NCBI GenBank assembly: GCA_965261595.1
Contig: CBDHDG010000006.1
Location: forward strand, 1,672,799-1,736,798
DNA: 64,000 nucleotides
DNA from: a bacterium
Lineage (GTDB): Bacteria > UBA8248 > JACPRG01 > G963555815
Direction of reading: 5' to 3'
Of the stretch, positions 1 through 38,009 are shown one piece after another. The position numbers were made by a program, and so were the translations under genes. The notes beneath the pieces are model-generated. The model made no database searches. It had not been told where the DNA came from and worked only from the letters and a program-made list of their open reading frames with translations. Position 1 is the stretch's first letter. Each line of letters starts with the position of its first letter.

Positions 1-9
1 GGGGCGGAG

Positions 10-852: not shown

Positions 853-1039
853 CGCGGAGGCTGAGGGTCAACCGACCCGCGCAACACCGCTTTCGCGATT
901 GGGTGGACCCTCCATTGGAATTCGACCCCGCCGCCGCCCCTTGGAACGAACGGTTGATGAGAATTTTGCGTTGGACGGGCGGGCGGCATGGTTTGTGTCC
1001 GCTATCCGCGGGACTTAGCCTGATCGGGATGTCGGCGCA

Positions 1040-2032: not shown

Positions 2033-2393
2033 AAGCCGCCGCCGGAAGGAATACCCGCCCCGGAAGAGCGGACATCGGAAGCGCCGTCCGCGATGTCCGC
2101 CGCGATAGTCGGCCTCTTTTCATGTTTCCCCCTTCGGCATATTCTCTCCCGTCCTTCCTTGAATCCGGTTGCGGACCTCTTGGGCCTTGGGCTAACATTG
2201 ACCCAGTTGATCTTCTTTTCCTGAGAATGACCGTTCGGAGTCTCGGTGGCCGGCTGGGCGGGACGTGCGGTGCGTCCGCGTCCGGCGGGGTTGCGCGAAT
2301 GGCGGCGGTGGCGCCAGGGGAAATCCCAGGTTTCGAAGGCGCACTTCAAGACCCCGGGCCTGTTGTCCGGCTCACACTGGAATGGACGGCACG

Positions 2394-3560: not shown

Positions 3561-3625
3561 CCGAGGGGTTCCGGCCCGTTCAGAGACCGGGGGGAAGCGG
3601 ATCGGCCCGGCCATCGAGAGAGAAG

Positions 3626-4111
3626 GTGGAGGCGTTCATCGGCGTAGGCTCCAATCTGAATCACCCCAAAGAGCGATGCGCCGAGGCGATGACCCGCGTT
3701 GGAAATGCGGAGGGCGTCCAGGTCATCGGGCGCTCCCGGTGGTATGCGACCGCTCCGGTGGGGCCGGTGGACCAGCAGGATTTCGTCAACGGCGTTCTCC
3801 GCGCGGAGACCCGTCTCGACCCGGCGGACCTGCTTGGGACATTGAAGGCGATTGAGGCCGACATGGGCCGGCGCGATGGTTTGCGGTGGGGACCTCGCGT
3901 GATCGACCTGGACCTGCTGCTGTTCGGCGACTGGGTGAGCGCGGGGCCGAATTTGACGATTCCCCACCCGGAAATCGGCGAGCGCCGGTTTGTCCTCGCC
4001 CCCCTCTGCGACCTTGCCCCGGACGGGATCCATCCGATCTCGCGGAAGACGTTCCGTCAGATGCTGGAGGACCTGGGGGAAGGACAGCGGGTGGTTCCGA
4101 TCCCCGAGTAA
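3626..4111 (+). CDS. folK: 2-amino-4-hydroxy-6-hydroxymethyldihydropteridine pyrophosphokinase (HPPK)
   Basis: VEAFIGVGSNL...RWGPRVIDLDLLLFGD HPPK motifs. In-frame GTG start at 3626 preserves the conserved N-terminus. Confidence 0.8.
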   Translation: MEAFIGVGSNLNHPKERCAEAMTRVGNAEGVQVIGRSRWYATAPVGPVDQQDFVNGVLRAETRLDPADLLGTLKAIEADMGRRDGLRWGPRVIDLDLLLFGDWVSAGPNLTIPHPEIGERRFVLAPLCDLAPDGIHPISRKTFRQMLEDLGEGQRVVPIPE

Positions 4112-4125
4112 GGGCCGCGCATTGT

Positions 4126-4758
4126 ATGGATCAGGCGCGCTATATCGCGATCGAAGGCCCCATCGGGGTGGGAAAGACGAGTCTGGCGGAGCGCCTCGCC
4201 GAGGTGATTGGCGCGTCGGTCCTCCGCGAAGTCACCGAAGAGAACCCCTTTCTGGCGAACTTCTACGCCGACGCCGACCGGCACGCCTTTCAGACGCAGC
4301 TCTTTTTCCTCCTTAACCGGTACCGGCAGCAGCTTGATCTGACCCAACTGGATCTGTTTCAGAGCGGCATCGTGAGCGATTACATCTTCGCGAAAGACCG
4401 AATCTTCGCCTGCGTGAACCTGGATCCGGACGAAATTGTCCTCTATGAGGAGATATACTCCCTGCTGCGGACCCGGATCCCTTCGCCGGATCTCGTGGTT
4501 TTCCTTCAGGCCGGCACGGACGTCCTCATCGATCGCATCCGAAACCGGCGGCGCGATTTCGAGCGGTCCATCAAGCCCGAATACCTGGAGCGCATCAACG
4601 AGGCTTATAATCGCTACTTCTTCCGCTATTCCGAAACCCCTCTCCTGATCGTGAACACCGATGCCATGGATTTCGTTCACCGGGAAGAGGATTTCGACCA
4701 CTTGGTCCGAGAGATCGTCAATCTGAAGCAGGGAACCCACATTTACGTGCCCCGTTAG
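4126..4758 (+). CDS. deoxynucleoside kinase family protein
   Basis: P-loop IAIEGPIGVGKTSLAERL plus dNK-family ERS motif region (RIRNRRRDFERSI). ATG at 4126. Confidence 0.75.
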   Translation: MDQARYIAIEGPIGVGKTSLAERLAEVIGASVLREVTEENPFLANFYADADRHAFQTQLFFLLNRYRQQLDLTQLDLFQSGIVSDYIFAKDRIFACVNLDPDEIVLYEEIYSLLRTRIPSPDLVVFLQAGTDVLIDRIRNRRRDFERSIKPEYLERINEAYNRYFFRYSETPLLIVNTDAMDFVHREEDFDHLVREIVNLKQGTHIYVPR

Positions 4759-4819
4759 GGAGCCCGGGAGGCCCGGGGGGCCGCGGGGGCCAAGCGGCGC
4801 GGCAGCCTCGGGAGTTGAA

Positions 4820-5659
4820 ATGCAGGTCCTGACCTCGGCGGGCGCCATGAATGAGAAAGCGCGCGGCTTGCGCGCGGAGGGAAAGCGCCTCGGGCTTGTC
4901 CCCACGATGGGGATGTTCCACGAGGGCCACCTGGGTCTCATGCGGCGCGCGCGGAAAGAGAACGACGTCCTTACGATCTCCCTCTTTGTCAACCCGGCCC
5001 AATTCGGTCCCGGGGAAGACTTCGAATCCTATCCCAGGAATCAGGAGGCGGACCTCCGGAAGGCGGAGGACGAGGGGGTGGATTTGGTGTTCATGCCGGG
5101 CGTCGAGGAAATCTATCCCCCGGGCGACAGGACCTTCATCGAGGTCGAGGGGCTCTCGGACGTTCTCTGCGGAGAGAGGCGGCCCGGACACTTTCTGGGC
5201 GTGACGACGGTCGTGGCCAAGCTCTTCGCCCTCTGTCTTCCCCACCGGGCGTATTTCGGAAAGAAAGACTTCCAGCAGTGGGTCATCATCCGGCGGATGG
5301 TTTCCGACTTGCGGATGGATGTCGAGGTCGTCGGGTGTCCAACCGCGCGGGAGCGAAACGGTCTCGCCCTTTCATCCCGAAATATCTATCTCGATGATGA
5401 AGATCGAGCGAGCGCGGTCGGCCTGCGGCGCGCCCTGCTGGCCGTCTCGGAAGGCTTTCGAGGGGGGAGCGAGGATGTGCCCGCTTTGGTGGAGGTCGCT
5501 TCAAAAGTCCTGGAAGATCACGGCCTCCGCCGGGATTATCTGGTCATCGTCCATCCTGAGACGCTTGTCGGTTTGGACAGGGTTACGGGTCCGGCCGTGG
5601 TCTTGGGCGCGGTTTGGTGCGGGAAGGCCCGGTTGATCGATAACCTGGAGCTGGACTGA
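4820..5659 (+). CDS. panC: pantoate--beta-alanine ligase
   Basis: LGLVPTMGMFHEGHLGLMRRA HIGH-type motif and full-length PanC. Confidence 0.85.
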   Translation: MQVLTSAGAMNEKARGLRAEGKRLGLVPTMGMFHEGHLGLMRRARKENDVLTISLFVNPAQFGPGEDFESYPRNQEADLRKAEDEGVDLVFMPGVEEIYPPGDRTFIEVEGLSDVLCGERRPGHFLGVTTVVAKLFALCLPHRAYFGKKDFQQWVIIRRMVSDLRMDVEVVGCPTARERNGLALSSRNIYLDDEDRASAVGLRRALLAVSEGFRGGSEDVPALVEVASKVLEDHGLRRDYLVIVHPETLVGLDRVTGPAVVLGAVWCGKARLIDNLELD

Positions 5660-5691
5660 GTCGGAGCGCGTCCGTGACGCCCCCCATTGTC

Positions 5692-5894
5692 ATTCCCGCG
5701 TAGGCGGGAATCCATCAGTGTTTCCGATCGGTCCCAATCTTTCCGCCCGCCGGCTGCGCCGAAGGCCCTTCCTCCCCCCTCTTGTATATTTCTCAACTCA
5801 TTGATCACGTGGGCGGGATGATGGACCGGCAACTCAGAACTCCGGATTCCCGCGTGCGCGGGATTGACGGCTCGGGGACAGGCCGCGCGGGAAT
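5692..5894. promoter_or_regulatory. cluster of ATTCCCGCG / CGCGGGAAT palindromic motifs (candidate operator sites) upstream of the TPR-ExbBD-TonB operon
   Basis: Perfect hairpin ATTCCCGC-GTAG-GCGGGAAT at 5692-5711, a near copy at 5846-5865 and a third CGCGGGAAT at 5886-5894, in the 415-bp intergenic region before the gene starting at 6075. Confidence 0.25.
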
Positions 5895-6074
5895 ATTGAC
5901 ATGTCGGAATGAATGTAAATATTCTGATGGTTAAATGCATTTCATCCTTTCCGAAAAAGGGGGGGAGACCGGCGATTGGCTTTCCGCTAAGCGGGACTTG
6001 ACTGAAACCGGACCGCTGTGATGTCGGCGGCCTGGGAGAATCAAGCCGAGACGCGCTGAATTTTCAGGGATATA

Positions 6075-13688: not shown

Positions 13689-15041
13689 CTACGTCGGGGC
13701 GGTGCGGCTGATGACCTCGGCCGAGTCTCGTCGGATGTTGGTGTAATGGGAATCCCGCCGGGGATAGCCCATGCGGATGAGAAACAGGGGCTCGTAGGCG
13801 TCCGGAATGTCGAGAATTTCCCGAAGCGCGGCCTTGGGCTTTTCCTGGACGATGATGGAGGTTTGAAACTGAACGCCGGCGCCCAGGGCCGCGGCGGTCA
13901 GCCACAGCGCTTGGATCCCCGCCCCCACGCCGTTGAGGATCCGCCGCCGGAAGGGATCGTCGGCCGCAAACCGGCCCGTGGAGTTTTCGATGACCCCCGT
14001 CAGGTAGGCGCCGGTCGTCTCGGGGGACGTCTCGGCCTCGCGCAGCATGATCCGGTGCGCTCCCAGGGCCATGGCCAGCGGGGCGAGGGCGGTTTTCAGA
14101 CCGAGTCGCGCGAGCGTCCTTTTCACCCCGGTCAACCCGAAGTGACCGACCCACTCCCCATCTCCCCGCCGCTTCCATTCCTTTTTCTGAAAGCGCAACC
14201 ATCCGCAGGTCTCCCGAAACCGCCCCCGGTCCCCGGTCGCCTGTTTCCAGGCGCGCTCTTGAAGCCGGGTCAGCTCCATGGTGTTTCCGGATTCCTCCGC
14301 CAGGACGAGCGCCGCCTCCATCGCCCCGTGAGCATCGATGGCCCGGCGGGCTGCGGAAAGCATCCGCACGCTGTCTTCCGGCCAGGGATCGGTCCGCAAC
14401 ATCGGCGCCCGGTCGGTTTGACGCGACCGGATGCAATCCAGGGCCTCCATTCCATCGGCGTGTTGGGGCCGTGGCTGAATGTGGACGGGCTTGGCTTTGA
14501 ATGAATCCAGGTGGTAGACGGCGGGGGCGGGTCGCGATGCGTTTTGGGGGTCGCCGGATCTCCCGATTCCGAAGAGGAGATACGGTTCCAGGTTGTCCGG
14601 GAAGGAGAAGCTCACGGGACGCCAGGATTTCACGATTCGATCGGAGGGTCCCCGGACGTTGCAGGCCAGACCCAATGCCGCCGAGGCCGCTTGGATGTTT
14701 AGGCACGCCGTGCCGAGGGCGATGTAGGATTCGGAGCCCAGCGGGTCGGCGACGGGCAGCATCCGGTTTCGGTCTAGATGACAGAGGATCCACGCCCGCC
14801 CATCCGCGAGATCCTTCTCTTCAGGAACGGCGGAGAAGGCCCGGGCCGCCTCTTGTCGGCAGCCGGGCGCGCGCAGGACCTGGAAGTGCCAGGGTTGTGT
14901 GTTGTACGCCGAAGCGGCCCAGCGGGCGGCCTCCAGAATCTTGTTCATCTGTTCTTCGGACGGCGCGCCGCCGTCCGGTGGAGCCGCGCCGCCATTGCCG
15001 GGCGGGGCCAACCCTCTTTCGATGGCCTCGAAGATGTCCAT
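13689..15041 (-). CDS. nitroreductase family protein with two nitroreductase-like domains (SagB-type dehydrogenase-like)
   Basis: YNTQPWHF nitroreductase motif and a second homologous half. Start taken at MDIFEAIERG (15041); a longer start at 15125 is possible. Confidence 0.6.
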   Translation of the reverse strand: MDIFEAIERGLAPPGNGGAAPPDGGAPSEEQMNKILEAARWAASAYNTQPWHFQVLRAPGCRQEAARAFSAVPEEKDLADGRAWILCHLDRNRMLPVADPLGSESYIALGTACLNIQAASAALGLACNVRGPSDRIVKSWRPVSFSFPDNLEPYLLFGIGRSGDPQNASRPAPAVYHLDSFKAKPVHIQPRPQHADGMEALDCIRSRQTDRAPMLRTDPWPEDSVRMLSAARRAIDAHGAMEAALVLAEESGNTMELTRLQERAWKQATGDRGRFRETCGWLRFQKKEWKRRGDGEWVGHFGLTGVKRTLARLGLKTALAPLAMALGAHRIMLREAETSPETTGAYLTGVIENSTGRFAADDPFRRRILNGVGAGIQALWLTAAALGAGVQFQTSIIVQEKPKAALREILDIPDAYEPLFLIRMGYPRRDSHYTNIRRDSAEVISRTAPT

Positions 15042-18395: not shown

Positions 18396-18889
18396 AACGG
18401 ATGTGGCCCCAGAGGTCCGGGTCGGGTGAAGCGACCTGCATGCCCAGGGCGAGACAACCGCCGATGAGAAGGCAAACGAGGAAAAAGGAATTCAGGTCAA
18501 CGCGGTCGAACCGGGATATCCACTTTGCGGCGGCGGGGGGGGGGCGCGAAGAACGAGATGAATCAGACGGGCTCACGGGCGCGCGTGCCTTTCGAAGATA
18601 TCTCAACGGGGGCGGGCGCGACGTGCGCGGAACCCTCTCGGACCGCCGAGGGGCCGCCGCGGACTTCGATTCCTTCAGCGAAAATAACGATTGGGCGTCG
18701 GAGAAGGGCCGCGGGGCGAGGCGATGTCCGAAATCCCCGGAAACCCGGGAGCGCGGCAAGAATTCACCGTGTTCCTTACCGTTCCGTTCGGGATTCATAC
18801 TCCCGATGTCGGCGGTTGTCCCTGAGGATGTGAAGAATCAAGGCAATCGGAATTATGCCCTTGACAAAGTAGGCCACAAGGTCTATATT

Positions 18890-19060
18890 CTAGGGTATGG
18901 CTGATTCATCGTTCACTTCAGCGTCTTTCGACCTTTCGCCCACAATCTTGTCTACTTCCTTCATAACCCGTTTTCCGAATATCTTCTCCATAAAATCATG
19001 GCCCGAAAGTTCGAGGTCTTCCTTTTTCAGTTCGTCTTTCTCTTTGGGGGATTGACCCAT
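18890..19060 (-). CDS. small hypothetical protein inside the IS, divergent from the transposase
   Basis: 57-aa charged ORF (MGQSPKEKDELKKEDLEL...) abutting the transposase start. Weak support only. Confidence 0.2.
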   Translation of the reverse strand: MGQSPKEKDELKKEDLELSGHDFMEKIFGKRVMKEVDKIVGERSKDAEVNDESAIP

Positions 19061-19949
19061 GGACATGAACCTCGTTTCCTTGATGGACCGCTTCAACTGC
19101 GATAAAAAGTGCCGAAAGGCCCTGGAGCATATCCGGTGGCCCAATGGTGTCGCCTGCACCCGTTGCGGCGATATGGACGTTCTTCCTCTTCCCAAACACT
19201 GCCGATGGGAATGTAAGTCATGCGGCTACCAGTTCAGCGTCATGTCGGGGACCATCATGCACGATTCTCATCTTGCCCTTCGCAAGTGGTTCCTGGCGAT
19301 CTACCTGATGTGCGAGTCGAAGAAGGGGATTTCCGCCCTTCAGATGAAGAGAACGCTTGGGACAACCTACCGGACGGCCTGGCACCTGTGCCACCGAATC
19401 CGCGAGGCGATGGGCAATGATCCGTTTGAGGGGCCTACGCTTCTCGGAGTGGTAGAGGTCGATGAAACGCTTGTGGGAGGCAAGAAGAAGGGCAAGGGCC
19501 GTGCCTACAAGGGCAACAAGGTTTGGGTCGCAGGAGCCATCCAGCGAGGCGGCAAGGTCCGGGTCGAGCGTATCTCCGACGTGAAACGTCACACGCTCCA
19601 TGGATTCATTAGCCGCGCCGTTCGGGACGAAGCCGAGGCCATCTATACGGACGAATTGAAGTCCTACCTGGGAATTGCCGACAACAATACGCGCCATGAG
19701 ACGGTCAACCATTCAGCCGAACAATGGGTCATTGGCGAAGTTCACACCAACAGTATAGAAGGTGTTTGGAGCCTATTCAAGCGTTCCCTGATGGGTGCGT
19801 TCCACAAGATGAGCGCGAAGCACATGGACCGCTACCTCGAAGAGCTTGAATGGCGGTTCAACAACCGGAACAACCCGAATCTATTCCAAGATACCCTTGC
19901 CCGCATTATGGACACTAAGAATCTGACTTATCGGGAGTTGGTGGCTTAA
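19059..19949 (+). CDS. IS1595 family transposase (zinc-ribbon plus DDE domain)
   Basis: N-terminal CxxC...CxxC zinc ribbon (CTRCG...CKSCGY) and a DDE_Tnp_IS1595-like core (ISXO2-like), 296 aa. Confidence 0.9.
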   Translation: MDMNLVSLMDRFNCDKKCRKALEHIRWPNGVACTRCGDMDVLPLPKHCRWECKSCGYQFSVMSGTIMHDSHLALRKWFLAIYLMCESKKGISALQMKRTLGTTYRTAWHLCHRIREAMGNDPFEGPTLLGVVEVDETLVGGKKKGKGRAYKGNKVWVAGAIQRGGKVRVERISDVKRHTLHGFISRAVRDEAEAIYTDELKSYLGIADNNTRHETVNHSAEQWVIGEVHTNSIEGVWSLFKRSLMGAFHKMSAKHMDRYLEELEWRFNNRNNPNLFQDTLARIMDTKNLTYRELVA

Positions 19950-20020
19950 GTCTTCCACGGTTTCCCTCGTCATTAACAGACTCTGGTGGAAGTTGTATAT
20001 GCAAGAGGAATAATGGAACA

Positions 20021-20614
20021 TCACCAATTTTCTCTGCATACCTGCGCAAGGCCTTTATAGACACTTGTTGATTGTCTCCGGGGATCTTTTCCTGAACTCC
20101 TGCAAAAGTCTCCAGAAACCCTGGAATCCCCCCCCCAATTACTTGACAAATCTTTGACGATAATGGCATCCTTGAGCTGGCTTAACATAACCTTGATCCT
20201 TGGATCTTTTGTTGCCTGATGAGGATCTATGGAAAACCACAAACAAGCCGCCTGAGACAATGATAGATTTTTGTGTTTTTGGTATAATGAAACATCTACC
20301 TCTATGGGTTCTTCACCTGGAGCTACAGTATCTGTGTGGATGCACTCATCGATCTTCTTGTCTAAACGTTCCACCTCGAGACGAAAAGGCGCCATTAACA
20401 AGTTCCATAGGAATGTTGGAACGATAGCCACCAATATGAATATGATAGCGATCACAATATTATCCGTCATTTCTGAACTAGCCTTTTCTTCTTCTCCGAT
20501 ATAGCTGAGTAGCAAAATAAATATCGCAGGAACGAGAACCAACACAAGGACGGTTCCAAATGACAACCCAAAACTCTTCCACGTGTCAATACACGCTTTC
20601 TTAAAGATTTCCAT
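20021..20614 (-). CDS. passenger gene: hypothetical 2-TM membrane protein (about 38% GC)
   Basis: 197-aa ORF inside the IS between the transposase and the right IR. Two TM helices then a soluble domain. AT-rich codon usage foreign to the host. Confidence 0.5.
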   Translation of the reverse strand: MEIFKKACIDTWKSFGLSFGTVLVLVLVPAIFILLLSYIGEEEKASSEMTDNIVIAIIFILVAIVPTFLWNLLMAPFRLEVERLDKKIDECIHTDTVAPGEEPIEVDVSLYQKHKNLSLSQAACLWFSIDPHQATKDPRIKVMLSQLKDAIIVKDLSSNWGGDSRVSGDFCRSSGKDPRRQSTSVYKGLAQVCRENW

Positions 20615-21144
20615 GCAACAAAACTACACATGGGATCGGGCTTTGTCAAGGGCATAATTCCGAAGGCAATGGTCACCGCCAACAGCCAAAAGACCACCGT
20701 AGCTAATCCCACGTTTCATCCTCCATGATCAGGATATTCGGTTCAAGTCCGGAGCTTACGACGCTTGGTTTCCACGGCCGGGGTTCGATCCGGACCCCGG
20801 CGACGTTTCTCAGAGATCCTCTTCCCGCGCAACGACGCCCGAGGTCATGTTCCCGCTGATCATCTTATCAGGACTTTCGTTCTCACCGAGAGACAAGGGG
20901 GGATGGGCCGCTTCTCGACCGATCCTGGAACTCCTGACTTCCCAACTCACCGGATGATCAACAACGACATTCCTATATATTTGGAAGCCGCCCTGGCGCA
21001 AGTGATCTCTGGGAGTAGTCGAATATTAATGAATAACCAACCGGCTCGGTCGTGGGGACCATGGAGGGGGGCGCGTCGTTCTCGATCCTGTTTGCGAGAG
21101 GGCGGAAATCGTCCCCGGCGGAAGGCGTCAGCCGCCGGTCGTCT

Positions 21145-23463: not shown

Positions 23464-24143
23464 TTTCCATTCCCAGGATTCGGGCAAAGCCGAACCCGCC
23501 GATGCCCTCGTATTGCCGTTAGGCGCTTGCCCCACTTCTCAAGGGCCGCATTCCGCCGCGCCATTCAGATTATCACGGTTCAGGTTGCGCGGCGGGATAT
23601 AGAGGTTGTGAATCGATCACGCGGGAACACCCGGGTCCGTCGCTGTCTATGGCGGCCGTTGGCGGTGTCAAGCCGGATCATTCCGCCAGCATGGACTGGA
23701 TATTTCCGGCCGCTCGGCGGGATCGACCCTTCAAGAAATCCGGTGGTTCAATCATTGTTCGGACAATATGGATTTGTTCTAAGTAGAACCCCCGTGGCAC
23801 TATTTGTGCAAGCTTAAAAAGATGGGAACCATACATGCGCTCAATAGCGGTTCACGGTTTTGACCCTCCCGGATAAGTCAGAGGGGGGATGGGTCCGCGT
23901 GAAATCGTATTACCCCGCTACGCTTTGGGGGAGCCGCCCGCCTATCGCCCCGGGTGTTGTCGGAGGGGCGGAGATCCAGGGTCCCGAAGGTCGGGTTGAT
24001 CTTGGGGTTCCGGTGCGCCTCGGCGGCGCATTTCACGGTTTCCGTAAACAGAAACAAATCAAGGGGGGGACGCAAGAAAACGGGCGCCCCCGCCCTTGGG
24101 TTTCGTTGGACACTCGATCGAGTCATCAAGGCAAACCAATCGG

Positions 24144-26324
24144 ATGATCAAGCGACTCCTCATCTGGCTCACCTCCCTGCTTTATGAGCGAACCATCCTC
24201 GTTCTGAGCGTGATGTTCGTTGCCGGCGTGGCGGGCATGATTTGGGATGTTTCCCGTGTGCAGACAAATCTCATCGAAGCGACGGCATTGGAATACGCGA
24301 CCGAGCACACCCACGCTCTGGCGGAATTTCGCACGCTCTATACGTCGGAAGTGGTTGCCCGCGTGAGGCCCTATGGGACCGAGGTGACCCATGACTACAA
24401 ATCAAAGGAAGGAGCCATCCCCCTTCCCGCCACGTTGAGCATGGAGCTCGGCAAAAGAATCGGGAAGCATCGTTCCGGGCTTCAATCCCGGTTGTACAGC
24501 GCCTATCCGTTTCCCTGGCGAAAAGACAAGGGCGGCCTGCGGGATGAATTTGCCAAGGAAGCCTGGAACCATTTGCGCCGGAATCCCGATAAACCTTTTT
24601 ACCGATTCGAGACATTCCAGGGCCGCCGCTCATTGCGATACGCGACGGCGGATTTGATGCGGCCCGCTTGCGTCAACTGTCACAACACGCACCCCGACTC
24701 CCCCAAAAAGGATTGGAAAGCGGGAGACGTAAGAGGGGTTCTGGAAATTGTACGCCCCATGGAGGCCATCGTCGCGCAGACGCGAGAAGGTCTAAGAAAA
24801 ACCTTTGGCCTGATGGTGGTGATGGCCGTGATGGGGCTGTCATGTCTCACCCTCGTGATTGGCAGGCAAAGGCGAACCTCGGCCGACTTGGGGCAGCGGG
24901 CTGAGGAGGTGGAAGCGGCCAACCGAGAGCTGAAAACCGAGATCGCCGAGCGCAAGCGGACCGAGGAGGCTCTCAAACTCACGCAATTCTCCGTCGAGCG
25001 ATCGGTGGACGCGACCTTCTGGATCGCGCCGGACAGCCGGATCCTGAACGTGAACGATGCGACATGCCGTCACTTCGGGTATTCACGGGAAGAGCTTCTC
25101 TCGATGACCATCTCGGACATCAACCTGGCCTACCCGCGGGAGAAATGGACCGAGCATTGGGAAAAAGTGAAGCGAAATGGATCTCTGACTTTCGAATCCA
25201 TCTTAACGACCAAAGACGGCCGGGAGATGCCGGTCGAGATTACCGCCAACTACCTGGAATTCAACGGAAAGGAGTACATTTTCAGCTTTGCCCGCGACAT
25301 CACCGCGCGCAAGGAGGCGGAGGAAGCGTTGCGACTCACGCAATTCTCCGTTGACCGGGCGGGAGACGCCACCAACTGGATCGCGCGGGACGGCAAGATC
25401 CTCTATGTGAACGATGCGGAATGCGACTATCTCGGGTACTCGCGGGAAGAACTGCTCTCCATGACCATTTTCGAAATCGATTCGGAGCAATCGCCGGAGA
25501 AGTGGGCGGCGCATTGGAAAAAAGTGAAAGAAGCGGGTTCGCTTACATTTGAGTCAAGCCAAGTAACCAAAGACGGCGGGAAAATCCCGACCGAGGTGAC
25601 CTCCAGTCACCTGGAGTTCAACGGAAAGGAGTACCTCGTCGGCTTTGTTCGCGACATCACCGAGCGCAAGCGGGCAGAGGAGGCGCTGCGGCTCACGCAG
25701 TTCTGCGTTGAGCGGGCGGGGGACCCCGTTTTTTGGTTCGGCCCGGACGGCCGGTTTCTTTACGTGAATGATGCGGCGTGCCGGTATCTCGGGTACTCAC
25801 GGGAAGAGCTGCTCACGATGGCCGTCTCGGACATCAACCCGCAGCGTACGCCGGAGAAGTGGCCCGAGAGATGGGAAAAGAGGAAAGGGCGCGGACCGCA
25901 GACCTTCGAGACCCGCCACCTCGCCAAGGACGGCCGGACGGTTCCGGTCGAGGTGACCGCCAACTACCTGGAGCTTAACGGAAAGGAGTATATGTTCAGC
26001 TTCGCCCGCGACATCACTGCGCGCAAACAGGCCGAGGAGGCGCTGCGGCTCACGCAGTTCGCGGTGGATCAGGCGGGGGACGCCATTTTCTGGGTGACGC
26101 CGGATGGTGGATACCACTATGTGAATGACGCGGCGTGCTGGTATCTCGGGTACTCCCGGGAAGAGTTGCTCTCCATGTCGGTCTGGGACGTCCAGCCGGA
26201 TCTTTCGGCCGGGCAGTGGCCCGAGAGGTGGGAAGAGCTGAAACGGATCGGCGCTTTATCCGCCGAAACCCGCTACATGACCAAGAAAGGCGGAGTCGTT
26301 CCGGGCGAGGTATCCATCAACTAA
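24144..26324 (+). CDS. N-terminal part of multi-PAS hybrid sensor histidine kinase: 2-TM periplasmic CxxCH sensor domain plus PAS domains 1-4, ending at an in-frame TAA
   Basis: MIKRLLIWLTSLL TM1, extracytoplasmic domain with CVNCH (c-type heme motif, DUF3365-like), TM2, then four LRLTQF...NYLEFNGKEY PAS repeats. TAA at 26322-26324 replaces the conserved Tyr codon TAC. Confidence 0.8.
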   Translation: MIKRLLIWLTSLLYERTILVLSVMFVAGVAGMIWDVSRVQTNLIEATALEYATEHTHALAEFRTLYTSEVVARVRPYGTEVTHDYKSKEGAIPLPATLSMELGKRIGKHRSGLQSRLYSAYPFPWRKDKGGLRDEFAKEAWNHLRRNPDKPFYRFETFQGRRSLRYATADLMRPACVNCHNTHPDSPKKDWKAGDVRGVLEIVRPMEAIVAQTREGLRKTFGLMVVMAVMGLSCLTLVIGRQRRTSADLGQRAEEVEAANRELKTEIAERKRTEEALKLTQFSVERSVDATFWIAPDSRILNVNDATCRHFGYSREELLSMTISDINLAYPREKWTEHWEKVKRNGSLTFESILTTKDGREMPVEITANYLEFNGKEYIFSFARDITARKEAEEALRLTQFSVDRAGDATNWIARDGKILYVNDAECDYLGYSREELLSMTIFEIDSEQSPEKWAAHWKKVKEAGSLTFESSQVTKDGGKIPTEVTSSHLEFNGKEYLVGFVRDITERKRAEEALRLTQFCVERAGDPVFWFGPDGRFLYVNDAACRYLGYSREELLTMAVSDINPQRTPEKWPERWEKRKGRGPQTFETRHLAKDGRTVPVEVTANYLELNGKEYMFSFARDITARKQAEEALRLTQFAVDQAGDAIFWVTPDGGYHYVNDAACWYLGYSREELLSMSVWDVQPDLSAGQWPERWEELKRIGALSAETRYMTKKGGVVPGEVSIN

Positions 26325-26360
26325 CTGGAATTCAACGGCAAAGAATACTCCCTGGGCTTC

Positions 26361-29180
26361 GTGAGGGACATCTCCGAGCGCATGCGCGCGGAAGAGACGC
26401 TACGGCTCACGCAGTTCTCCGTTGACCGGGCCGGGGACGCCACATACTGGATCGGTGCGGACGGCCGAATCCTCTATGCCAACGAAGCGGCGCGCGCGGA
26501 TCTCGGGTACTCAATGGATGAAATGATCTCCATGACGATCATGGACATCAATCCGGACTACTCACCGGACACCTGGGCGGCGCATTGGAAGCGGCTAAAA
26601 GAAAAGGGTTTCTATACCTTTGAAGGGCGCAACGTGACCAAAGACGGCCGCAAATTTCCGGTCGAAGTGACTTCCAACTATTTGGAGTTCAACGGAAAAG
26701 AGTACATTTTCGGCTTCGTCCGCAACATCACCGACCGCAAGGAGGCGGAGGAGACGCTGCGGCTCACGCAATTCTCCGTTGACCGGGCCGGGGACGCCAC
26801 ATACTGGATCGCGGAGGACGGCCGCTTCCTCTATGTGAACGACGCGGCGTGCAAAATGCTCGGATACTCACGGGAAAAGCTGCTCACGATGGCGGTCTGG
26901 GACATCGACGCCAATCGCCGAATGGAACAGTGGATCGATAGACGGGAAGAGCGGAAACGCCATAAATTCTATACGTTAGAAACGGGCCACATGGCCAAGG
27001 ACGGCAGGGTCATCCCCGTTGAGATATCCGCCGACTGTCTCGAGTTCGGCGGCAAAGATTACATATTTGTCTCCGCCCGCGACATCACGGAGCGCAGACG
27101 GATGGCGGACGACTTGCGGAAGGCGAAGGAGGCCGCCGAGGTCGCCAGCCGCGCGAAGAGTGAATTTCTCGCCAACATGAGCCACGAGATCCGGACACCG
27201 ATGAACGGTGTGATCGGCATGTCGGGGCTTCTCCTCGACACCGGTCTCAGCGATAAACAGCGCGAGTACGCCGAGATGATTCGAGACTCGGGTGAGAACC
27301 TGCTTGAGATTGTGAATGACATTCTCGATTTATCGAAGATTGAGGCGGAAAAGCTGACCATCGAGCCGGTCCCGTTCGACCTGCTGTCCGTTGTGGAAGA
27401 GACGACCGAGTTCTTGGCGCCGAAGGCCGATGAAAAGGGCCTGTGTCTCATTGCCCGCTACGCCCCGGATCTCCCCCGTCACTTCATCGGTGACCCCGGA
27501 CGAATTCGACAGATTCTCATTAATTTCATGGGCAACACCATCAAGTTCACGAACGAGGGGCACGTTCTGCTCGGCATCGAGGCGGACGCTGGGCGCGAGG
27601 GAAAATCAGGTCTTCGGATCTCCGTGGCGGATACCGGCATCGGCATCCGCGAAGACGCGATCGAGCGGATCTTCGAAAAATTCACACAGGCCGACGCTCC
27701 AGCCTCCCACGCGCATGGCGGAACGGGCCTCGGGCTTTCGATCTGCAAACAGCTCATCGAGTTGATGGGAGGGACCATCGGGGTGAACAGCAGGCCCGGC
27801 GCAGGATCGACCTTTTGGGTCACCCTCCATCTTCCCCTCGCCTCCGCCGCCTCGCCTCCGCCCCCGCCGGAGCTGGCGGGTGCTCGCATCCTGATCGCGG
27901 CCGGAAATGAGCTCAAGAGGCAAATCCTGTACGAGCAAGTGAGGCATTGGGGAATGCGCGCGGACCGCGTCACTTCCATCGAGGAGACGCTGACCGCGGT
28001 TCATGACGCCCAAGAGGGCGTCGACCCATATCAGGCGGCCATTTTCACCGGCCAAAAAGACGGCGTGGACGCCGAGGCATTGGCCCGTGTCGTCCAATCC
28101 GACCCCAATCTGCGTAAGGTCCCCGCGGTCATCATCGCCCCCTTGGGGCAGCGGGTGGATGCGGATCGAATGGCGAAAGCCGGAATCGCCGCATGCCTGA
28201 GCGAGCCTGTGCGGCAATCCGATCTGATGAACGCCCTGGCGGCGTTGCGCCGCTCGGCAGAGACGGGGCCCCTTCCGGAAAGGGTGACTCGGTTTGCCCC
28301 GGCCGATTCCCACTCTGAAAGGCCTGCCCGGGACCGACAGGACGGTCGGGTTCTCTCTCGCGTTTTGGTGGCTGAAGACAATGCCGTGAACCAAAAGGTG
28401 GCGAAGGGGATGCTGGAGAATCTGGGCTTTCGTGTGGACGTGGTGTCCAATGGCAAGGAGGCCCTCGAGATGTCCGCACTGCTCCCCTACGACGTAATTT
28501 TCATGGATTGCCGTATGCCTGAGATGGACGGATACGAGGCGACGGCATTGATCCGCCGGAGGGAGCGGGAGGGTGGTTCTCGCGTCCCGATCATCGCCCT
28601 GACGGCCCACGCCATGCAGGGTGAGCGGGAGAGGTGTCTGGCGGCGGGCATGGACGACTATGTCACCAAGCCGGTGAAGGTTGATGAGCTGAAGACTGTC
28701 CTGGCGCGCTGGATCGGAGACGTGGGAACGACGGACGCCCCGGCTCCCGCCAGGGTGGAGGGGGCCCGCGAAGTGACCCTCGACCTCGAGGCGCTCCGAG
28801 AATTGGTCTCTGTCGCGGCGGCATCGGGTTCCGGCTTCGTGGAGGAAGCGGTGGCCACTTATTTATCGCAGACGCCCGTTCAAATTTCGGCCGTCCGAGC
28901 GGCTATAGCGCACAAGAACGCGCAAGACCTCAGCCGGGAGGCCCACAGCCTCAAGAGCCGCAGCGCAATCTTGGGCGCGCGAAACATGAGGGCATTGAGC
29001 GCTGAGCTGGAAGGGCGCGCGGAGGCGGACTCGCTGGAGGGGGCGGGAATGCTCCTCCGGAGATTGGAGGAGGAGTTTGACCGCGTGAAATCAGCGCTCG
29101 AGTCCGGGCTGTGGAAGGGCGAAGGGGTAAGCGTTTTGACAGCGGCCGGCCCGCTTGTTGTTTCTGAGAAGCCCGAATGA
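26361..29180 (+). CDS. C-terminal part of the same hybrid histidine kinase: PAS 5-6, HisKA, HATPase_c, receiver, HPt
   Basis: Same frame as 24144-26324. Motifs SHEIRTPMNGVIG (H-box), GTGLGLSICK (G2), receiver DVIFMDCRMPEMDGYEA, HPt SREAHSLKSRSAILGA. First in-frame ATG after the stop is 26361. Confidence 0.8.
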   Translation: MRDISERMRAEETLRLTQFSVDRAGDATYWIGADGRILYANEAARADLGYSMDEMISMTIMDINPDYSPDTWAAHWKRLKEKGFYTFEGRNVTKDGRKFPVEVTSNYLEFNGKEYIFGFVRNITDRKEAEETLRLTQFSVDRAGDATYWIAEDGRFLYVNDAACKMLGYSREKLLTMAVWDIDANRRMEQWIDRREERKRHKFYTLETGHMAKDGRVIPVEISADCLEFGGKDYIFVSARDITERRRMADDLRKAKEAAEVASRAKSEFLANMSHEIRTPMNGVIGMSGLLLDTGLSDKQREYAEMIRDSGENLLEIVNDILDLSKIEAEKLTIEPVPFDLLSVVEETTEFLAPKADEKGLCLIARYAPDLPRHFIGDPGRIRQILINFMGNTIKFTNEGHVLLGIEADAGREGKSGLRISVADTGIGIREDAIERIFEKFTQADAPASHAHGGTGLGLSICKQLIELMGGTIGVNSRPGAGSTFWVTLHLPLASAASPPPPPELAGARILIAAGNELKRQILYEQVRHWGMRADRVTSIEETLTAVHDAQEGVDPYQAAIFTGQKDGVDAEALARVVQSDPNLRKVPAVIIAPLGQRVDADRMAKAGIAACLSEPVRQSDLMNALAALRRSAETGPLPERVTRFAPADSHSERPARDRQDGRVLSRVLVAEDNAVNQKVAKGMLENLGFRVDVVSNGKEALEMSALLPYDVIFMDCRMPEMDGYEATALIRRREREGGSRVPIIALTAHAMQGERERCLAAGMDDYVTKPVKVDELKTVLARWIGDVGTTDAPAPARVEGAREVTLDLEALRELVSVAAASGSGFVEEAVATYLSQTPVQISAVRAAIAHKNAQDLSREAHSLKSRSAILGARNMRALSAELEGRAEADSLEGAGMLLRRLEEEFDRVKSALESGLWKGEGVSVLTAAGPLVVSEKPE

Positions 29181-29230
29181 AACTCTGGAATTCCACCAAG
29201 TGTTTTTACCATGAGAAAGGACCACCCGAG

Positions 29231-30316
29231 ATGAGTGGAAAGATCCGCGTTTTGATCGTTGAGGATTCAGCTTTGGAGCGTTTCCTCCTCTGTGAGATTC
29301 TCTCCCAAGAGCCCGACATCGAGGTGGTCGATGTCGCGCCGGACGCCGATCGCGCCCGAAATAAAATGCGAATTCATAAGCCCGACGTTCTGACGCTGGA
29401 CGTGAAGATGCCGGGCGAGGACGGCATTGCCTTCCTCACCGGGCTTATGTCCACGGACCCTCTTCCGGTCATCATGGTCAGCGCGTTCACCCTGGCGGGA
29501 GCGAAGACCACGCTGTCCGCCCTCGAGAAAGGCGCGGTGGATTTCGTCGCGAAACCCGATGGCAGCAAAGATGAAGATCTTGAAGTGTTCCGGCGGGAGC
29601 TCATCCGGAAAGTGCGCGCCGCCGCCACGGCCCGTATGGGGCGGCATCCCCGGCCGGTCCCGACCCACGCGCCGGCGGAGCTGCCGGAAACACCGGGATT
29701 CATCGTTGCGATTGGAACCTCGATGGGAGGTCCGGAAGCGTTGAGGAGTCTTCTTCCGAGACTTCCGGCCAATTTTCCGGCGATTCTGCTCGTCCAGCAT
29801 ATGCCGGAGTACTTCACCCAGGCCATGGCCGAGAGCCTGGATAAGATCTGCGCCATCCACGTGAAGGAGGCGGAACAGGGCAAACCCGTCCTACCGGGTC
29901 AGGCGCTCATTGCTCCGGGAAATTGCCACATGGAGTTGCGGCGCCTGGGAACCCGCTATTATGTGGAGATTCACAAAAACCCCCGGGTGCGCGGGTTCCG
30001 GCCTTCTGTGGATGTGTTGTTCGAGTCTGTGGCCCAATACGCGGATTTGGACACCATAGGGGTCATCCTGACGGGGATGGGCTCGGATGGGGCGAAGGGC
30101 ATCTCCCGGACGAAGGCCGCCGGCGCGTACACCATTGCCCAGGACGAGGCAAGCTCTGTCATCTTCGGCATGCCCAAACAGGCCATCGCGACGGGGGCCG
30201 TCGATATCGTGCTTCCTCTCGAGGGAATCCCCGGCCATCTCATTAAAGCGATGCAAAGGGCAGGGGCGCCCTTGAAGAAGCCGGCCGGATCGCCGTTGGT
30301 CGCAGCGAGAACCTAG
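29231..30316 (+). CDS. cheB: protein-glutamate methylesterase CheB (REC plus methylesterase)
   Basis: REC domain (IRVLIVEDSALER...LTLDVKMPGEDG) and CheB catalytic domain (IVAIGTSMGGPEAL, HMPE..., GMGSDG). ATG at 29231. Confidence 0.85.
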   Translation: MSGKIRVLIVEDSALERFLLCEILSQEPDIEVVDVAPDADRARNKMRIHKPDVLTLDVKMPGEDGIAFLTGLMSTDPLPVIMVSAFTLAGAKTTLSALEKGAVDFVAKPDGSKDEDLEVFRRELIRKVRAAATARMGRHPRPVPTHAPAELPETPGFIVAIGTSMGGPEALRSLLPRLPANFPAILLVQHMPEYFTQAMAESLDKICAIHVKEAEQGKPVLPGQALIAPGNCHMELRRLGTRYYVEIHKNPRVRGFRPSVDVLFESVAQYADLDTIGVILTGMGSDGAKGISRTKAAGAYTIAQDEASSVIFGMPKQAIATGAVDIVLPLEGIPGHLIKAMQRAGAPLKKPAGSPLVAART

Positions 30317-34517: not shown

Positions 34518-36054
34518 TCAGACCTGATTATAGCGATGAAGCCGGGGCGCGGTGACGCCGGCCTCCTGTTCCCACCCCCGGCTGTGGCGACGGATTCCCT
34601 CCAGAACCGGCGCGAAGAATTCCAAGTCCTTCCCCAGCCGTTTATATCTCTTCCGCGCCGTCTCGCGGAACCTTCGGCCGGTATCCGCCTCGTTCACCCG
34701 AACGCTCTTTCCCTCCCGCCGGACGACCTCGCCTTGGGTGAGGACCGTGTGGACGTCCCTGGGTCCTTGGCATCTGTGAAGGAGGATCGTCCACGGATCG
34801 AGGTCCGGATGGGAAGCCGGGTCGTCGAAGATCCGTCTTCCGTCGAGGATGACGATGTCGGCGGTCTTGCCTTCCTCCAGGCTGCCCAGGCCGTCGTGCA
34901 TCGCGATCCGGTTGCCTTCCTGAATTCCGCGCGTGAACCATTCCTCGGCCGGGATCGGCTCCCAGTCGATCGAGGGCGGCCGCGCCAGGAACCAGCCGAG
35001 GCGCATTTCGGTCCAGATGTCGTTATCGTCGTTGAAGGCGGAGCCGTCCGTCCCCATGGCGAACCGGACTCCCTCCCTGCGCATCACGGAGACAGGTGCG
35101 ATCCCGCTGACCAATTTAAGGTTCGACGTCGGACAATGGACGATGGCCGTTCCGGTGTCGGCGATCATCCGGATATCCTCTTCCGGGGGCCAAACGAAAT
35201 GGGCGAAGCTGACTTCCGGACCCAGAAAGCCGATTGCCTGGAGGTGAGAAGCAACGCTCTGGCCCAACTGTCTGGGTCCATACATCATCTCATACCGGGA
35301 TTCGGCGACGTGAATCTGGATGCCGGTCCCCGCCTCCGCCGCCTTTTTCTTGATGCGCTTCAGCAGGCCGTCGGATGCCCACTGTACGCCCAAAGGGGTG
35401 AGGAAGATCCGAATCAGGCCGTCCTTGCCGTTGAACTCACCGTAGATCCCGTCGAACACCCGGAAGTATTCATCCAGGTCCGGAGGCGCCAGGAACGCTT
35501 CCGCCCACTTCCGTTGGGCCGCCGGCAGGCCCATGAGGAAAGGCCCGTGGTCTCCATAGACGAAGGGATTCTGATCCCCCATCGAAACACCGAACGACAT
35601 TCGAACTCCGGCGTCCAGGTATGCCTGGATGGCGGCCGGGAGCCCCCACCGGGGCAGGTGCGGAGCTGGTCGGGGGAAAATCCACCACCGTAGTCACACC
35701 GGACCGCTGGAGCTCCAGGGCGGACCAGAGGGTGTACAGGTAGATCTCCTCTTCGGTCATTTCCGCGCGATAGCTCCCGAAGATCAGCGGGAGCCACCTC
35801 TCCAGAGGCAAATCTCTCAGCCCGTCGCGGATGCTGTTCCCCGCGTGATGGTGGGCGCTGACCAGGCCGGGCATGGCCACGTCGCGCTCCAGAGATCCCA
35901 GCGTTTCGTCAAAGGGGCCGCGGGCGGACAACGCGTCGTGGGGGCCGACGGCCTCGACCTTGCCTCCATCCACGATGACCGCGCCTTCGCGGATGACGTC
36001 TTCGCGGTCCCGGAGCGTCAGGACGCGGTTGGCGCGAATCAGGATTCGGCTCAT
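34518..36054 (-). pseudogene. amidohydrolase family protein, paralog 1, frameshifted
   Basis: ORFs 35470..36054 (N-terminal, HHH metal motif) and 34518..35600 (C-terminal) match paralog 2 along their length but are in different frames. Has a 1-bp insertion relative to paralog 2 near 35660-35690 (GGGGGAAAA). Confidence 0.6.
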
Positions 36055-36207
36055 GGGCGTCTCCGAAATCTTGTGAAGGACATCATTCGGAGCAATCGAG
36101 TGCGGTCACTTCCGCCGACCGGCAGGCCGGGCGTTTGGGTCGGTTGACCCCTTGCCCGGCCGCAAGGCTCCTTCCGAGCCGCGGGGATGACTCATTTGGA
36201 GCAGCCA

Positions 36208-37743
36208 TCAGATCTGGTTGTAACGATGAAGCTTCGGGTCCGGCACATCGGTCTCCCGTTCCCAGACCTGGAAATACTTGTGGATGCCTTCGATGATCGG
36301 CTCGAAGAACGGCTTGTCTTTTTTGAGCCGCGCGTGCCGGTCCTCGAGCAGTCCGGCCAGCCTGCGGCCGATGTCCGCCTCGTCCACGAGGACGTTCTTC
36401 CCCTCCCGCCGGACGACCTCGCCCTTGGTCAGGACGGTGTGAACGTCCCTGTGCCCCTGGCACCGGTGGAGGAGGACCGCCCAGGGATCGAGGTCCGGAT
36501 AGGAAACCGGGTCGTCGAAAATACGCCGGCCGTCCAGGATGGTGATGTCCGCGGTCTTGCCTTCCTCCAGGCTGCCCAGGCCGTCGTGCATCGCGATCCG
36601 GTTGCCTTCCTGAATTCCGCGCGTGAACCATTCCTTGGCCGGGATCGGCTCCCAGTCGATCGAGGGCGGCCGCGCCAGGAACCAGCCGAGGCGCATTTCG
36701 GTCCAGATGTCGTTGTCGTCGTTGAAGCTCGAGCCGTCGGTGCCGAAGGCGAACCGGAGGCCCATCTCCCGCATTGTTGCGATCGGGCAGATCCCGCTGG
36801 CCAGCTTGACGTTCTGGGTGGGGTTGTGGGTGATGGCCGTTCCGGTGTCCACGAGAATTTGGATGTCCTCCCGGGTCGGCCAGATGGAGTGGGCGAAGCT
36901 GACCTCCGGGCCGAGGAAGCCGATGTCGTTCAGGTGGCCGATGGTGCTCGTTCCCAGCAGCTTGGGGCCGTACATCATCTGGTAGCGCGACTCGACGACG
37001 TGGATCTGAAGGCCCGTCCCCAGCTCATTCGCTTTCTTCTTGGCGCGCTTCAGCAGGTCGTCCGAGGTCCACTGGACGCCCAGGGGCGTGACGAAGACCC
37101 GGACGGTGTCGTTCTTGCCGTTGAACTCGGCGTGCACGTCATCCACGACCCGAAAGTATTCGTCCAGGTCGGGCGCGCCCATGAAACCTTCCGCCCACTC
37201 CCGCTGGGCCTGGGGCAGCCCGTTGAGGAACTCCGTGTGATCGCCGTATACGAAGGGATTCTGGTCCCGCGTCGATACGCCGAACGAGACCCGGATCCCC
37301 GCGTCGAGGTATGCCTGGATGCAGGGCGGGAACCCCCACCGGGGGAGGTTCATCGAGGGCGCGTGGAAATCCACCACCGTGGTGACGCCGCACCGCTGAA
37401 GCTCCAGAGCGGACCAGAGGCTGCGCAGGTAGGTCTCCTCCTCGGTCATCCCGACGCGATAGCTTCCGAAGATGAGCGGAACCCACATCTCCAAGGGGAC
37501 GTCCGACAGCCCGTCGCGGACGTTGTTTCCCGCGTGATGGTGGGCGCTGACCATTCCGGGAATGACGACGTCGTGGTCGAGGGAGCCCAGCTCTTCGTCG
37601 AAGGGGCCGCGGGAGGACAGGTCGTCGTGGGCGCCGACCGCTTCGATCGCGCCGTCGGCCACGATCACCGCGCCCTTGCGAATGAGATCATCGCCGTCCT
37701 GAAGTGTCAGGACGCGGTCGCCTCGGATGAGGATTCGGCTCAT
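36208..37743 (-). CDS. amidohydrolase family protein (metal-dependent deaminase/chlorohydrolase-like)
   Basis: 511 aa intact. PGMVSAHHHAGN metal-binding motif. About 85% aa identical to the frameshifted upstream paralog. Confidence 0.8.
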   Translation of the reverse strand: MSRILIRGDRVLTLQDGDDLIRKGAVIVADGAIEAVGAHDDLSSRGPFDEELGSLDHDVVIPGMVSAHHHAGNNVRDGLSDVPLEMWVPLIFGSYRVGMTEEETYLRSLWSALELQRCGVTTVVDFHAPSMNLPRWGFPPCIQAYLDAGIRVSFGVSTRDQNPFVYGDHTEFLNGLPQAQREWAEGFMGAPDLDEYFRVVDDVHAEFNGKNDTVRVFVTPLGVQWTSDDLLKRAKKKANELGTGLQIHVVESRYQMMYGPKLLGTSTIGHLNDIGFLGPEVSFAHSIWPTREDIQILVDTGTAITHNPTQNVKLASGICPIATMREMGLRFAFGTDGSSFNDDNDIWTEMRLGWFLARPPSIDWEPIPAKEWFTRGIQEGNRIAMHDGLGSLEEGKTADITILDGRRIFDDPVSYPDLDPWAVLLHRCQGHRDVHTVLTKGEVVRREGKNVLVDEADIGRRLAGLLEDRHARLKKDKPFFEPIIEGIHKYFQVWERETDVPDPKLHRYNQI

Positions 37744-38009
37744 TGGAATCTCCAGTCAGGGAAGGTCGAACGGGATTCGGATCGCATAATTTGACTCATG
37801 AATTCTCCACCATGCCGTTGAAGGGTGTCAAATGGAAGGGGCCGGAGCCTTGGGGTGAGGGGTTGACCCCCTTCTCCCCGATTCACCGGGCCTCGACATC
37901 GCTCTTCCTCCAGGGATACATTCATCCCCCCACTCCCCCCTTGGCCGGGAAGGCTCGGTTGAAAGGGGGCGAGTGAATTTTCCTGACCATGCGAGAGAGG
38001 AGGTCGGAA

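Follow-up and report, generated by a model that had tools for sequence, protein, structure and literature searches.

An in-frame TAA at positions 26322 to 26324 interrupts the gene of a hybrid sensor histidine kinase (1678 codons, positions 24144 to 29180, plus strand) in a 64,000-nucleotide (nt) stretch of DNA from an uncultured bacterium (GTDB lineage UBA8248; JACPRG01; GenBank assembly GCA_965261595.1, contig CBDHDG010000006.1, positions 1,672,799 to 1,736,798). This whole stretch is referred to below as the window, and all kinase features described are on its plus strand. The TAA is very probably a genuine nonsense mutation of recent date that was inherited vertically and turned the kinase into an ordinary pseudogene, within an operon of the kinase and a cheB-like gene that is decaying as a whole. 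A sense codon is present at this position in collinear relatives, the stop is found in more than one non-identical genome, and purifying selection on the gene is lost as far as the small numbers tell. We suggest that positions 24144 to 29180 be annotated as one pseudogene, and not as two genes or as a recoding event.

Position of the stop codon and reading frame

The sequence at 26319–26333 is AAC TAA CTG GAA TTC. The TAA is the lone internal stop in the frame-1 translation of 24096 to 29180 (...GEVSIN*LEFNGKEYSLGF..., with the motif N*LEFNGKEY), and it is codon 727 of 1678 when the numbering starts at ATG 24144. The initial annotation of the window had proposed that one TAA splits a kinase of about 1680 amino acids (aa), that the two open reading frames (ORFs) are in the same frame and that the protein signal is unbroken across the gap; all of this was found to be correct. 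The 5' ORF (24144–26324, 726 aa, open frame from 24096) encodes a first transmembrane segment (TM1), a sCache_heme sensor domain, a second one (TM2), PAS1 to PAS3 and most of PAS4, and its product is identical to database protein P0129. The 3' ORF (26361–29180, 939 aa counted from a GTG, first ATG at 26382) encodes the end of PAS4, PAS5 and PAS6, HisKA, HATPase_c, a degenerate REC, a REC and a HPt domain, and its product is identical to P0123. The Pfam domains run on over the stop, with the Tll0287-like domain and four PAS matches on the 5' side and two PAS, HisKA, HATPase_c, REC and HPt on the 3' side. This continuity is far beyond chance; a 99%-identical protein of 1678 aa occurs uninterrupted in other assemblies (P0001, see below).

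The stop lies within the C-terminal part of a PAS repeat unit, the fourth of six, so that three repeats precede it and not four as previously counted. Neighboring repeats are about 73% identical in DNA. The codon homologous to 727 is TAC in PAS1, CAC (His, SHLEFNGKEY) in PAS2, TAC (NYLELNGKEY) in PAS3, TAT (Tyr) in PAS5 and TGT (Cys) in PAS6. The statement that the preceding repeats carry Tyr as TAC is thus right for repeats 1 and 3 and wrong for repeat 2. The stop does replace a Tyr codon at a homologous PAS position, but the residue is only moderately conserved: Tyr is found there in 81 of 184 loose-motif matches and in 13 of 16 strict xLEF[NGD]GK matches in the homologues.

Conspecific alleles and the ancestral codon

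Homologues were searched with the joined protein, in which a Tyr was placed at position 727. P0001 is 1678 aa long, is 99% identical along its full length and has Tyr at 727. Its 90% cluster contains 14 members, four of which are complete 1678-aa proteins (P0001, P0128, P0131 and P0132). The remaining members are two pairs of 726 + 939 aa, one pair of 918 + 752 aa, one pair of 73 + 1002 aa, and fragments of 608 and 1091 aa. Ten related loci (L001 and L082 to L090) were compared with the window at the DNA level. They are collinear with it and 99.4 to 99.8% identical, and the full-length alleles show no insertions or deletions (indels) over the 5037 nt of the kinase gene. Codon 727 is TAT in seven of them (L001, L088, L089, L090, L084, L085 and L086), whose DNA is about 99.7% identical, and TAA in the window and L082. 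Four of the TAT alleles are complete, intact 1678-aa genes, and the closest intact haplotype is just 3 nt in 5037 away from the TAA haplotype of L082. The substitutions between the window and L001 are mostly transitions.

The ancestral codon is TAT. Since the conspecific alleles read TAT, the mutation is a T-to-A transversion at 26324 (Tyr727 to stop), and not the C-to-A change first suggested from the other repeats. The orthologue comparison called for by the initial annotation has thereby been carried out, with seven TAT alleles on one side and two TAA assemblies on the other. Its rule that a Tyr codon in orthologues would reduce the stop to a plain sequencing error proved too strict, as a recent mutation also predicts intact orthologues.

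A scan of the GTDB representative genomes with P0001 found only distant relatives (47% identity or less) and none from the same or a sister species, which leaves PAS4 without an outgroup. The sole closer relative, P0002 (74% identity), shares just PAS6 through HPt and therefore cannot polarize codon 727. It agrees with the window at two of the five C-terminal window-private sites (L991 and L1447), where the polarity is ambiguous. In the JGI metagenome contigs, no match was found to the exact sequence surrounding the stop, the variable base being left open as N, and a literature search by the accession numbers found no paper.

Inherited mutation or assembly error

L082 (ENA ERZ25071015, contig_25, 894 kb) carries the same TAA in a different haplotype and comes from a different sample accession than the window. 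It lacks all six window-private changes in the kinase (L611, L991, T1132, L1447, R1606 and L1665), and the two sequences disagree at 26 of the 14,899 positions that both cover. The window and L082 also share about ten substitutions that are absent from the other five full-length assemblies, synonymous and intergenic ones included, plus indels. Because the stop is common to two distinct haplotypes together with about ten other clade-specific substitutions, it was inherited and is not a random assembly error, which is effectively excluded. The seven TAT alleles and this second, non-identical TAA assembly bear out the earlier proposal of a recent nonsense mutation truncating a membrane sensor kinase.

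Forty-eight window-private substitutions, mostly GC-to-AT transitions, are found in about 25 kb (12300–39350). The window lineage is on a long private branch, and L082 has far fewer private substitutions. The window-private differences look like real recent mutations. Methylation-linked systematic errors were considered as their source, and inspection of the contexts of all 48 revealed no common motif. Import of divergent DNA was rejected as the source of the six private kinase changes, as it would also have brought synonymous differences and none is present.

The initial annotation had left room for a sequencing error. That the true codon is TAT and the gene intact in the organism, the TAA being an assembly or base-calling error, is now very unlikely. 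All other alleles do read TAT, and the contig names (contig_N, ctgN_29x_l) suggest long-read metagenome assemblies, which are prone to residual errors. Against this, the same base was recovered in two assemblies from different sample accessions that are 26 of 14,899 positions apart, and the TAA is among the roughly ten substitutions that define their clade. It is also a T/A transversion outside any homopolymer, and the other private differences of the window share no motif. Nanopore errors linked to methylation tend to be A/G or C/T ambiguities, not T/A.

Other lesions in the kinase gene

The gene is also broken in other assemblies, by different lesions. In L084 (ERZ25068879) a TGG to TGA change at window position 26900 creates W919*. 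An insertion sequence (IS) of the IS3 family, with HTH_Tnp_1 and rve ORFs, is inserted after window position 25936 (codon 598), with GCCG on either side, in L085 (ERZ28763718), L086 (ERZ25074053, 5x) and L087 (an NCBI contig of a metagenome-assembled genome (MAG), GCA_047517605.1). A second copy of this element lies beyond cheB in L085 and L086. The copies (L085 8671–9962 and 14937–16228; L086 3–1180 and 6155–7446) are 99.9% identical and bracket the 3' part of the kinase gene and cheB. The flanking gene order in L085 is rearranged relative to the window, which is consistent with IS-mediated inversion or transposition.

In L083 (ERZ28763718) another element is found, of the rve type (IS3 family) and 1256 nt long (L083 positions 4037–5292), with inverted repeats that begin TGGACTTACCCCGGTTT / TGGAGTTGACCCGGTTT. 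Its right junction falls inside codon 727, at most 2 nt from the base mutated in the window, and the flank resumes with AT CTG GAA TTC. The left flank ends at about 26308–26311; some 12 nt have been lost there, and there is no sign of a target duplication. Everything upstream of 26083 is replaced in L083 by an IS1595-family element. The possibility that the TAA is the scar of an excised L083-type IS was considered and rejected, as the TAA and TAT alleles differ cleanly by one substitution, without any indel, and the sequence after the element in L083 is of the TAT type. With three further independent lesions placed in 5037 nt, the probability that one lies no more than 15 nt from the TAA is about 1.8%. 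A mundane reason is possible: the end of the IS (...GTCAACTCCA) is similar to ATCAACT in the gene beside the junction, and the element may have inserted next to a target that looks like its own inverted repeat.

Broken and intact alleles are present in the same samples: ERZ25074053 contains L001 (29x) and L086 (5x), and ERZ28763718 contains L090, L085 and L083. The TAA does not behave as a phase-variation switch, being a substitution in non-repetitive sequence.

The cheB partner gene

The kinase gene is followed by a cheB-like gene (29177–30316, plus strand; REC + methylesterase, 379 aa), the ATG of which overlaps the kinase TGA (ATGA). The cheB gene is intact in the window and L082, where a run of three C at 30033–30035 is read as ...VAQYAD.... 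The run has five C (+2 frameshift) in L001, L088, L089, L090, L084, L085 and L086 and seven C in L083, and the methylesterase is truncated in these. All seven TAT-lineage assemblies covering cheB thus have a frameshifted cheB. The tract is short, changes in steps of two and follows the clades without varying inside them, which is not a phase-variable pattern. All nine assemblies that span both genes (9/9) have at least one inactivating lesion in the kinase-cheB operon. The kinase is what the TAA clade lost. In the other clade it was cheB, followed in several members by the kinase. In the TAA clade, translational coupling of cheB to the kinase is probably lost, and transcriptional polarity may add to this.

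Selective constraint on the kinase

Constraint was examined in seven full-length haplotypes, with the kinase compared to sixteen flanking genes. The nonsynonymous to synonymous polymorphisms number 16:3 in the kinase (two of the 16 are nonsense) and 47:46 in the flanking genes (Fisher p = 0.0099). The neutral expectation was derived from all possible single-base changes in the gene, weighted by the spectrum of the window-private substitutions; it predicts that 32% of the changes are synonymous. The 3 of 19 seen in the kinase agree with this value statistically (p = 0.09–0.14) and disagree with the proportion in the flanks (p = 0.0026). The window-private changes show the same tendency, with 6:0 in the kinase, gained there after the TAA, and 16:14 elsewhere (p about 0.02–0.04). 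One of the six, A1132T, replaces the N-box Ala that is found in 102 of 107 homologues. Among the four intact alleles, all differences are amino-acid changes. W769L is among these, and it hits, like W339L in L084, a Trp position that is conserved across the PAS repeats. Because the 16:3 ratio is near neutral, the private changes are 6:0 and even the intact alleles differ solely in amino acids, it was concluded that the gene evolves as though unconstrained across the species, beyond the visibly broken copies.

Probable pseudogene decay and possible adaptive loss

The following course of events best accounts for the data. A TAT to TAA change arose recently in one sub-lineage of the species. The cut within PAS4 separates the periplasmic c-heme sensor and PAS1 to PAS3 from the kinase core, the receiver and the HPt domain. 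It presumably leaves a membrane sensor fragment without output, and the sensor could then no longer drive phosphorylation. Expression of cheB would be reduced through the lost coupling and polarity. The whole kinase-cheB operon appears to be decaying in the species, by way of different lesions in each lineage, and the likely cause is relaxed selection rather than selection for loss. This resembles ordinary segregating bacterial pseudogenes, with a single derived stop, intact alleles in close relatives, IS activity nearby and a raised nonsynonymous to synonymous ratio. Nothing essential differs from them; what stands out is how many independent hits fell in a single operon.

It was also considered that the nonsense mutation is real and that selection favored a loss of kinase function, or of the kinase-CheB pathway, which would explain the separate knockouts in different lineages. 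In this direction points that about ten assemblies have between them four or five independent lesions in this single 5-kb gene (TAA727, W919*, the IS at codon 598 and the IS at codon 727), as does the coexistence of broken and intact alleles in ERZ25074053 and ERZ28763718. The 16:3 ratio is slightly above the neutral expectation, and the low synonymous diversity could mean a recent sweep. There is a precedent in the parallel gacS/gacA mutations with a habitat-specific fitness benefit (PMC8219802). However, the kinase ORF is still complete in four assemblies, and plain neutrality is statistically in agreement with the ratio (p = 0.09–0.14). Given the active IS elements and the lesions in neighboring genes, several hits in the region's largest gene could also be expected after a loss of constraint. 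Adaptive loss is thus considered unlikely, though less so than the other alternatives. Loss of gacS/gacA in Pseudomonas protegens (PMC8219802) and of lasR in P. aeruginosa (PMC9224983) is recurrent and has measured fitness benefits. The kinase case is similar in the varied inactivating or damaging mutations in one signaling gene, in the parallel lineages and in the coexistence of mutant and intact alleles. It differs in that its pattern is statistically compatible with neutral decay. A more specific version is quite improbable, namely that loss of a heme (possibly nitric oxide (NO)/redox) kinase-CheB module is positively selected in a natural population and that codon 727 in PAS4 is a preferred break point. 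Such a preference could come from useful separate sensor and kinase fragments, or from a local mutational or insertional hot spot.

Several points weigh against a simple inherited pseudogene under relaxed selection. The counts are small, and 6:0 and 16:3 fit neutrality without telling relaxed selection apart from positive selection, be it for change or for loss. The synonymous density of the kinase is about five-fold below that of the flanks (3/5037 nt vs 46/14,616 nt) at an equal nonsynonymous density. Simple decay would not lead one to expect this difference; a recent sweep at the level of the gene, or recombination, could be behind it. The cheB gene is intact exactly in the TAA lineage, and the dispensability of the operon rests on two deep clades, that is, on two independent first hits. 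The reciprocal lesions in kinase and cheB may simply reflect these two clades. Both TAA assemblies may be long-read, and a shared, lineage-specific systematic miscall at 26324 is formally possible. The independence of the two samples is inferred solely from their differing accession numbers.

The biological value of the case is modest: public metagenome assemblies cleanly show the parallel dismantling of a signaling operon in one uncultured species. If the broken alleles are favored, the locus would be an environmental counterpart of the adaptive loss of gacS or lasR and would point to a condition in which c-heme Cache sensing is costly.

Restart and recoding as rival readings of the stop

A functional gene fission was considered as another outcome, in which a membrane heme/PAS sensor and a soluble PAS5-PAS6 hybrid kinase would be made separately, the latter re-initiated at GTG 26361 or ATG 26382. 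The restart ATG placed at 26361 by the initial annotation is in fact a GTG, and the first in-frame ATG is at 26382; the two starts are 37 and 58 nt past the stop. The proximity of these starts, the second and independent disruption at the same codon (the IS in L083) and the intact cheB in the TAA lineage only would agree with fission. On the other hand, no Shine-Dalgarno-like sequence is found at a usable distance from GTG 26361 or ATG 26382, the closest being GAGGGA about 13 nt 5' of ATG 26382. The cut falls inside PAS4 and leaves a broken PAS fold in both products. Furthermore, the 3' half has gained five amino-acid changes and no synonymous change in the window lineage, including A1132T in the ATP-binding N-box. 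A cytoplasmic restart product is conceivable but finds no support in these features, and fission into two working proteins is highly improbable.

Programmed readthrough, stop recoding or a reassigned TAA, by which the full-length protein would still be made, was considered as a further alternative; readthrough and recoding had been raised by the initial annotation. The stop stands in for a Tyr codon, so rare readthrough by tRNA-Tyr would restore the wild-type residue, and near-cognate tRNA-Tyr can occasionally misread UAA. UAA is, however, recognized by both release factors, and no stop codon is less leaky. TAA is a normal terminator in the window, ending about nine other probable genes, such as those of a MoCo-binding dehydrogenase (end 21145, minus strand) and a Band_7 protein (end 32836). 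The stop is not conserved, with TAT in seven of the nine conspecific alleles that cover codon 727. The 111 nt around and 3' of the stop fold no better than shuffled sequences (z = +0.44), and the window contains no tRNA gene and no Rfam match. The likeness to programmed recoding (selenocysteine UGA, pyrrolysine UAG or lineage-wide reassignment) is limited to an in-frame stop within conserved coding sequence. The codon is TAA, it varies among alleles, no structure follows it and TAA terminates other genes of the same window. The probability of recoding is regarded as negligible.

Domain architecture of the intact kinase

The joined protein starts with a hydrophobic segment (residues 18–34, positions 24195–24245), followed by the Tll0287-like/DUF3365 (sCache_heme) sensor domain (residues 48–205, positions 24285–24758; PF11845, 61.4 bits vs a cut-off of 24.1) and a second hydrophobic segment (residues 221–240, positions 24804–24863). 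A motif search found a heme-c motif, CVNCH, at residues 176–180 (24669–24683). The sensor domain thus scores above the curated cut-off and has the CXXCH motif of the sCache_heme family, and the two flanking hydrophobic segments fit a periplasmic location of the heme domain. A coiled linker leads to six tandem PAS repeats of 357 nt (119 aa) each (24972–27113), recognized by Pfam PAS matches and by the motifs L[RK]LTQF and xLEFNGKEY at a constant 119-aa spacing; PAS4, which holds the stop, is at 26043–26399.

The kinase core consists of the HisKA dimerization and phospho-acceptor domain (27153–27350; PF00512, 82.1 bits), with the H-box SHEIRTP at 27180–27200, and the HATPase_c catalytic domain (27489–27836; PF02518, 105.3 bits). 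The N, G1 and G2 boxes of the latter are all present (NFMGNTIKF, DTGIGI and GGTGLGL); the N-box is at 27522–27548 and contains the window-private A1132T at 27537. A degenerate receiver-like segment is followed by a receiver domain (28362–28703; PF00072, 110.2 bits) with the phospho-acceptor motif IFMDCRMPEMDG at 28497–28532. The C-terminal HPt domain (28848–29093; PF01627, 37.5 bits) has HSLKSRSA at 28944–28967 and the window-private G1606R at 28959. The H-box, the HATPase_c boxes, the receiver Asp and the HPt His expected of a hybrid kinase are therefore all encoded, and it is the unbroken frame from sensor to kinase that is missing in the window.

In a 2026 preprint the Tll0287-like/DUF3365 family was reclassified as a c-heme-binding Cache domain, sCache_heme, in which CXXCH is kept in at least 99% of the family and the kinases are proposed NO sensors (PMC12889525). 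The protein described here resembles these kinases in the N-terminal PF11845 domain with CVNCH between hydrophobic segments, followed by PAS and HisKA/HATPase_c, a fusion type listed in that work (PMC12889525). It differs in its six near-identical tandem PAS repeats together with REC and HPt, and the window copy is interrupted by the stop. Judged by its domains, the intact protein would relay a periplasmic redox or gas signal via the PAS array to a phosphorelay that ends on the CheB-like regulator.

Organism, mobile elements and neighboring genes

The window is chromosomal, encoding UvrA, DnaE, RecG, RelA/SpoT and GuaA. The best named relatives of its GuaA (78–79% identity) are from MAGs labeled Candidatus Tectomicrobia and Nitrospinota. 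IS elements are active in this species. In addition to those in the kinase gene of other assemblies, a window-private IS1595-family insertion is found at 18848–20662 (transposase ORF 19059–19949; DDE_Tnp_IS1595, 5e-37). Its terminal inverted repeats are perfect over 22 nt (CGGAATTATGCCCTTGACAAAG), the target is duplicated over 8 bp (AAGGCAAT), and the insertion is absent from L001, L082 and L090. In L090, positions 1–6000, upstream of the MoCo dehydrogenase gene, have the usual neighborhood replaced by an integrase, an AlpA-like regulator, a Toprim/DUF7146 protein and a methylase-S fragment; this region looks like an integrated mobile island.

A second stop/sense polymorphism within the same 25 kb is located in the minus-strand nitroreductase genes (13689–15041). 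At 14463–14465, CAA in the window, L082 and L084 joins two domains into a 450-aa ORF, while TAA in L001 and L088 gives two separate genes (237 + 192 aa). A 183-aa hypothetical ORF called in L001 and L088 has, in the window, a CAG to TAG change at 17943 and a 1-nt insertion at 18345; it is likewise uncalled in L082, L084 and L089 and may be another decayed gene or no gene. Two adjacent amidohydrolase paralogues (34671–36064 and 36361–37753) share about 79% DNA identity, and the 511-aa one carries 34 of the flank polymorphisms.

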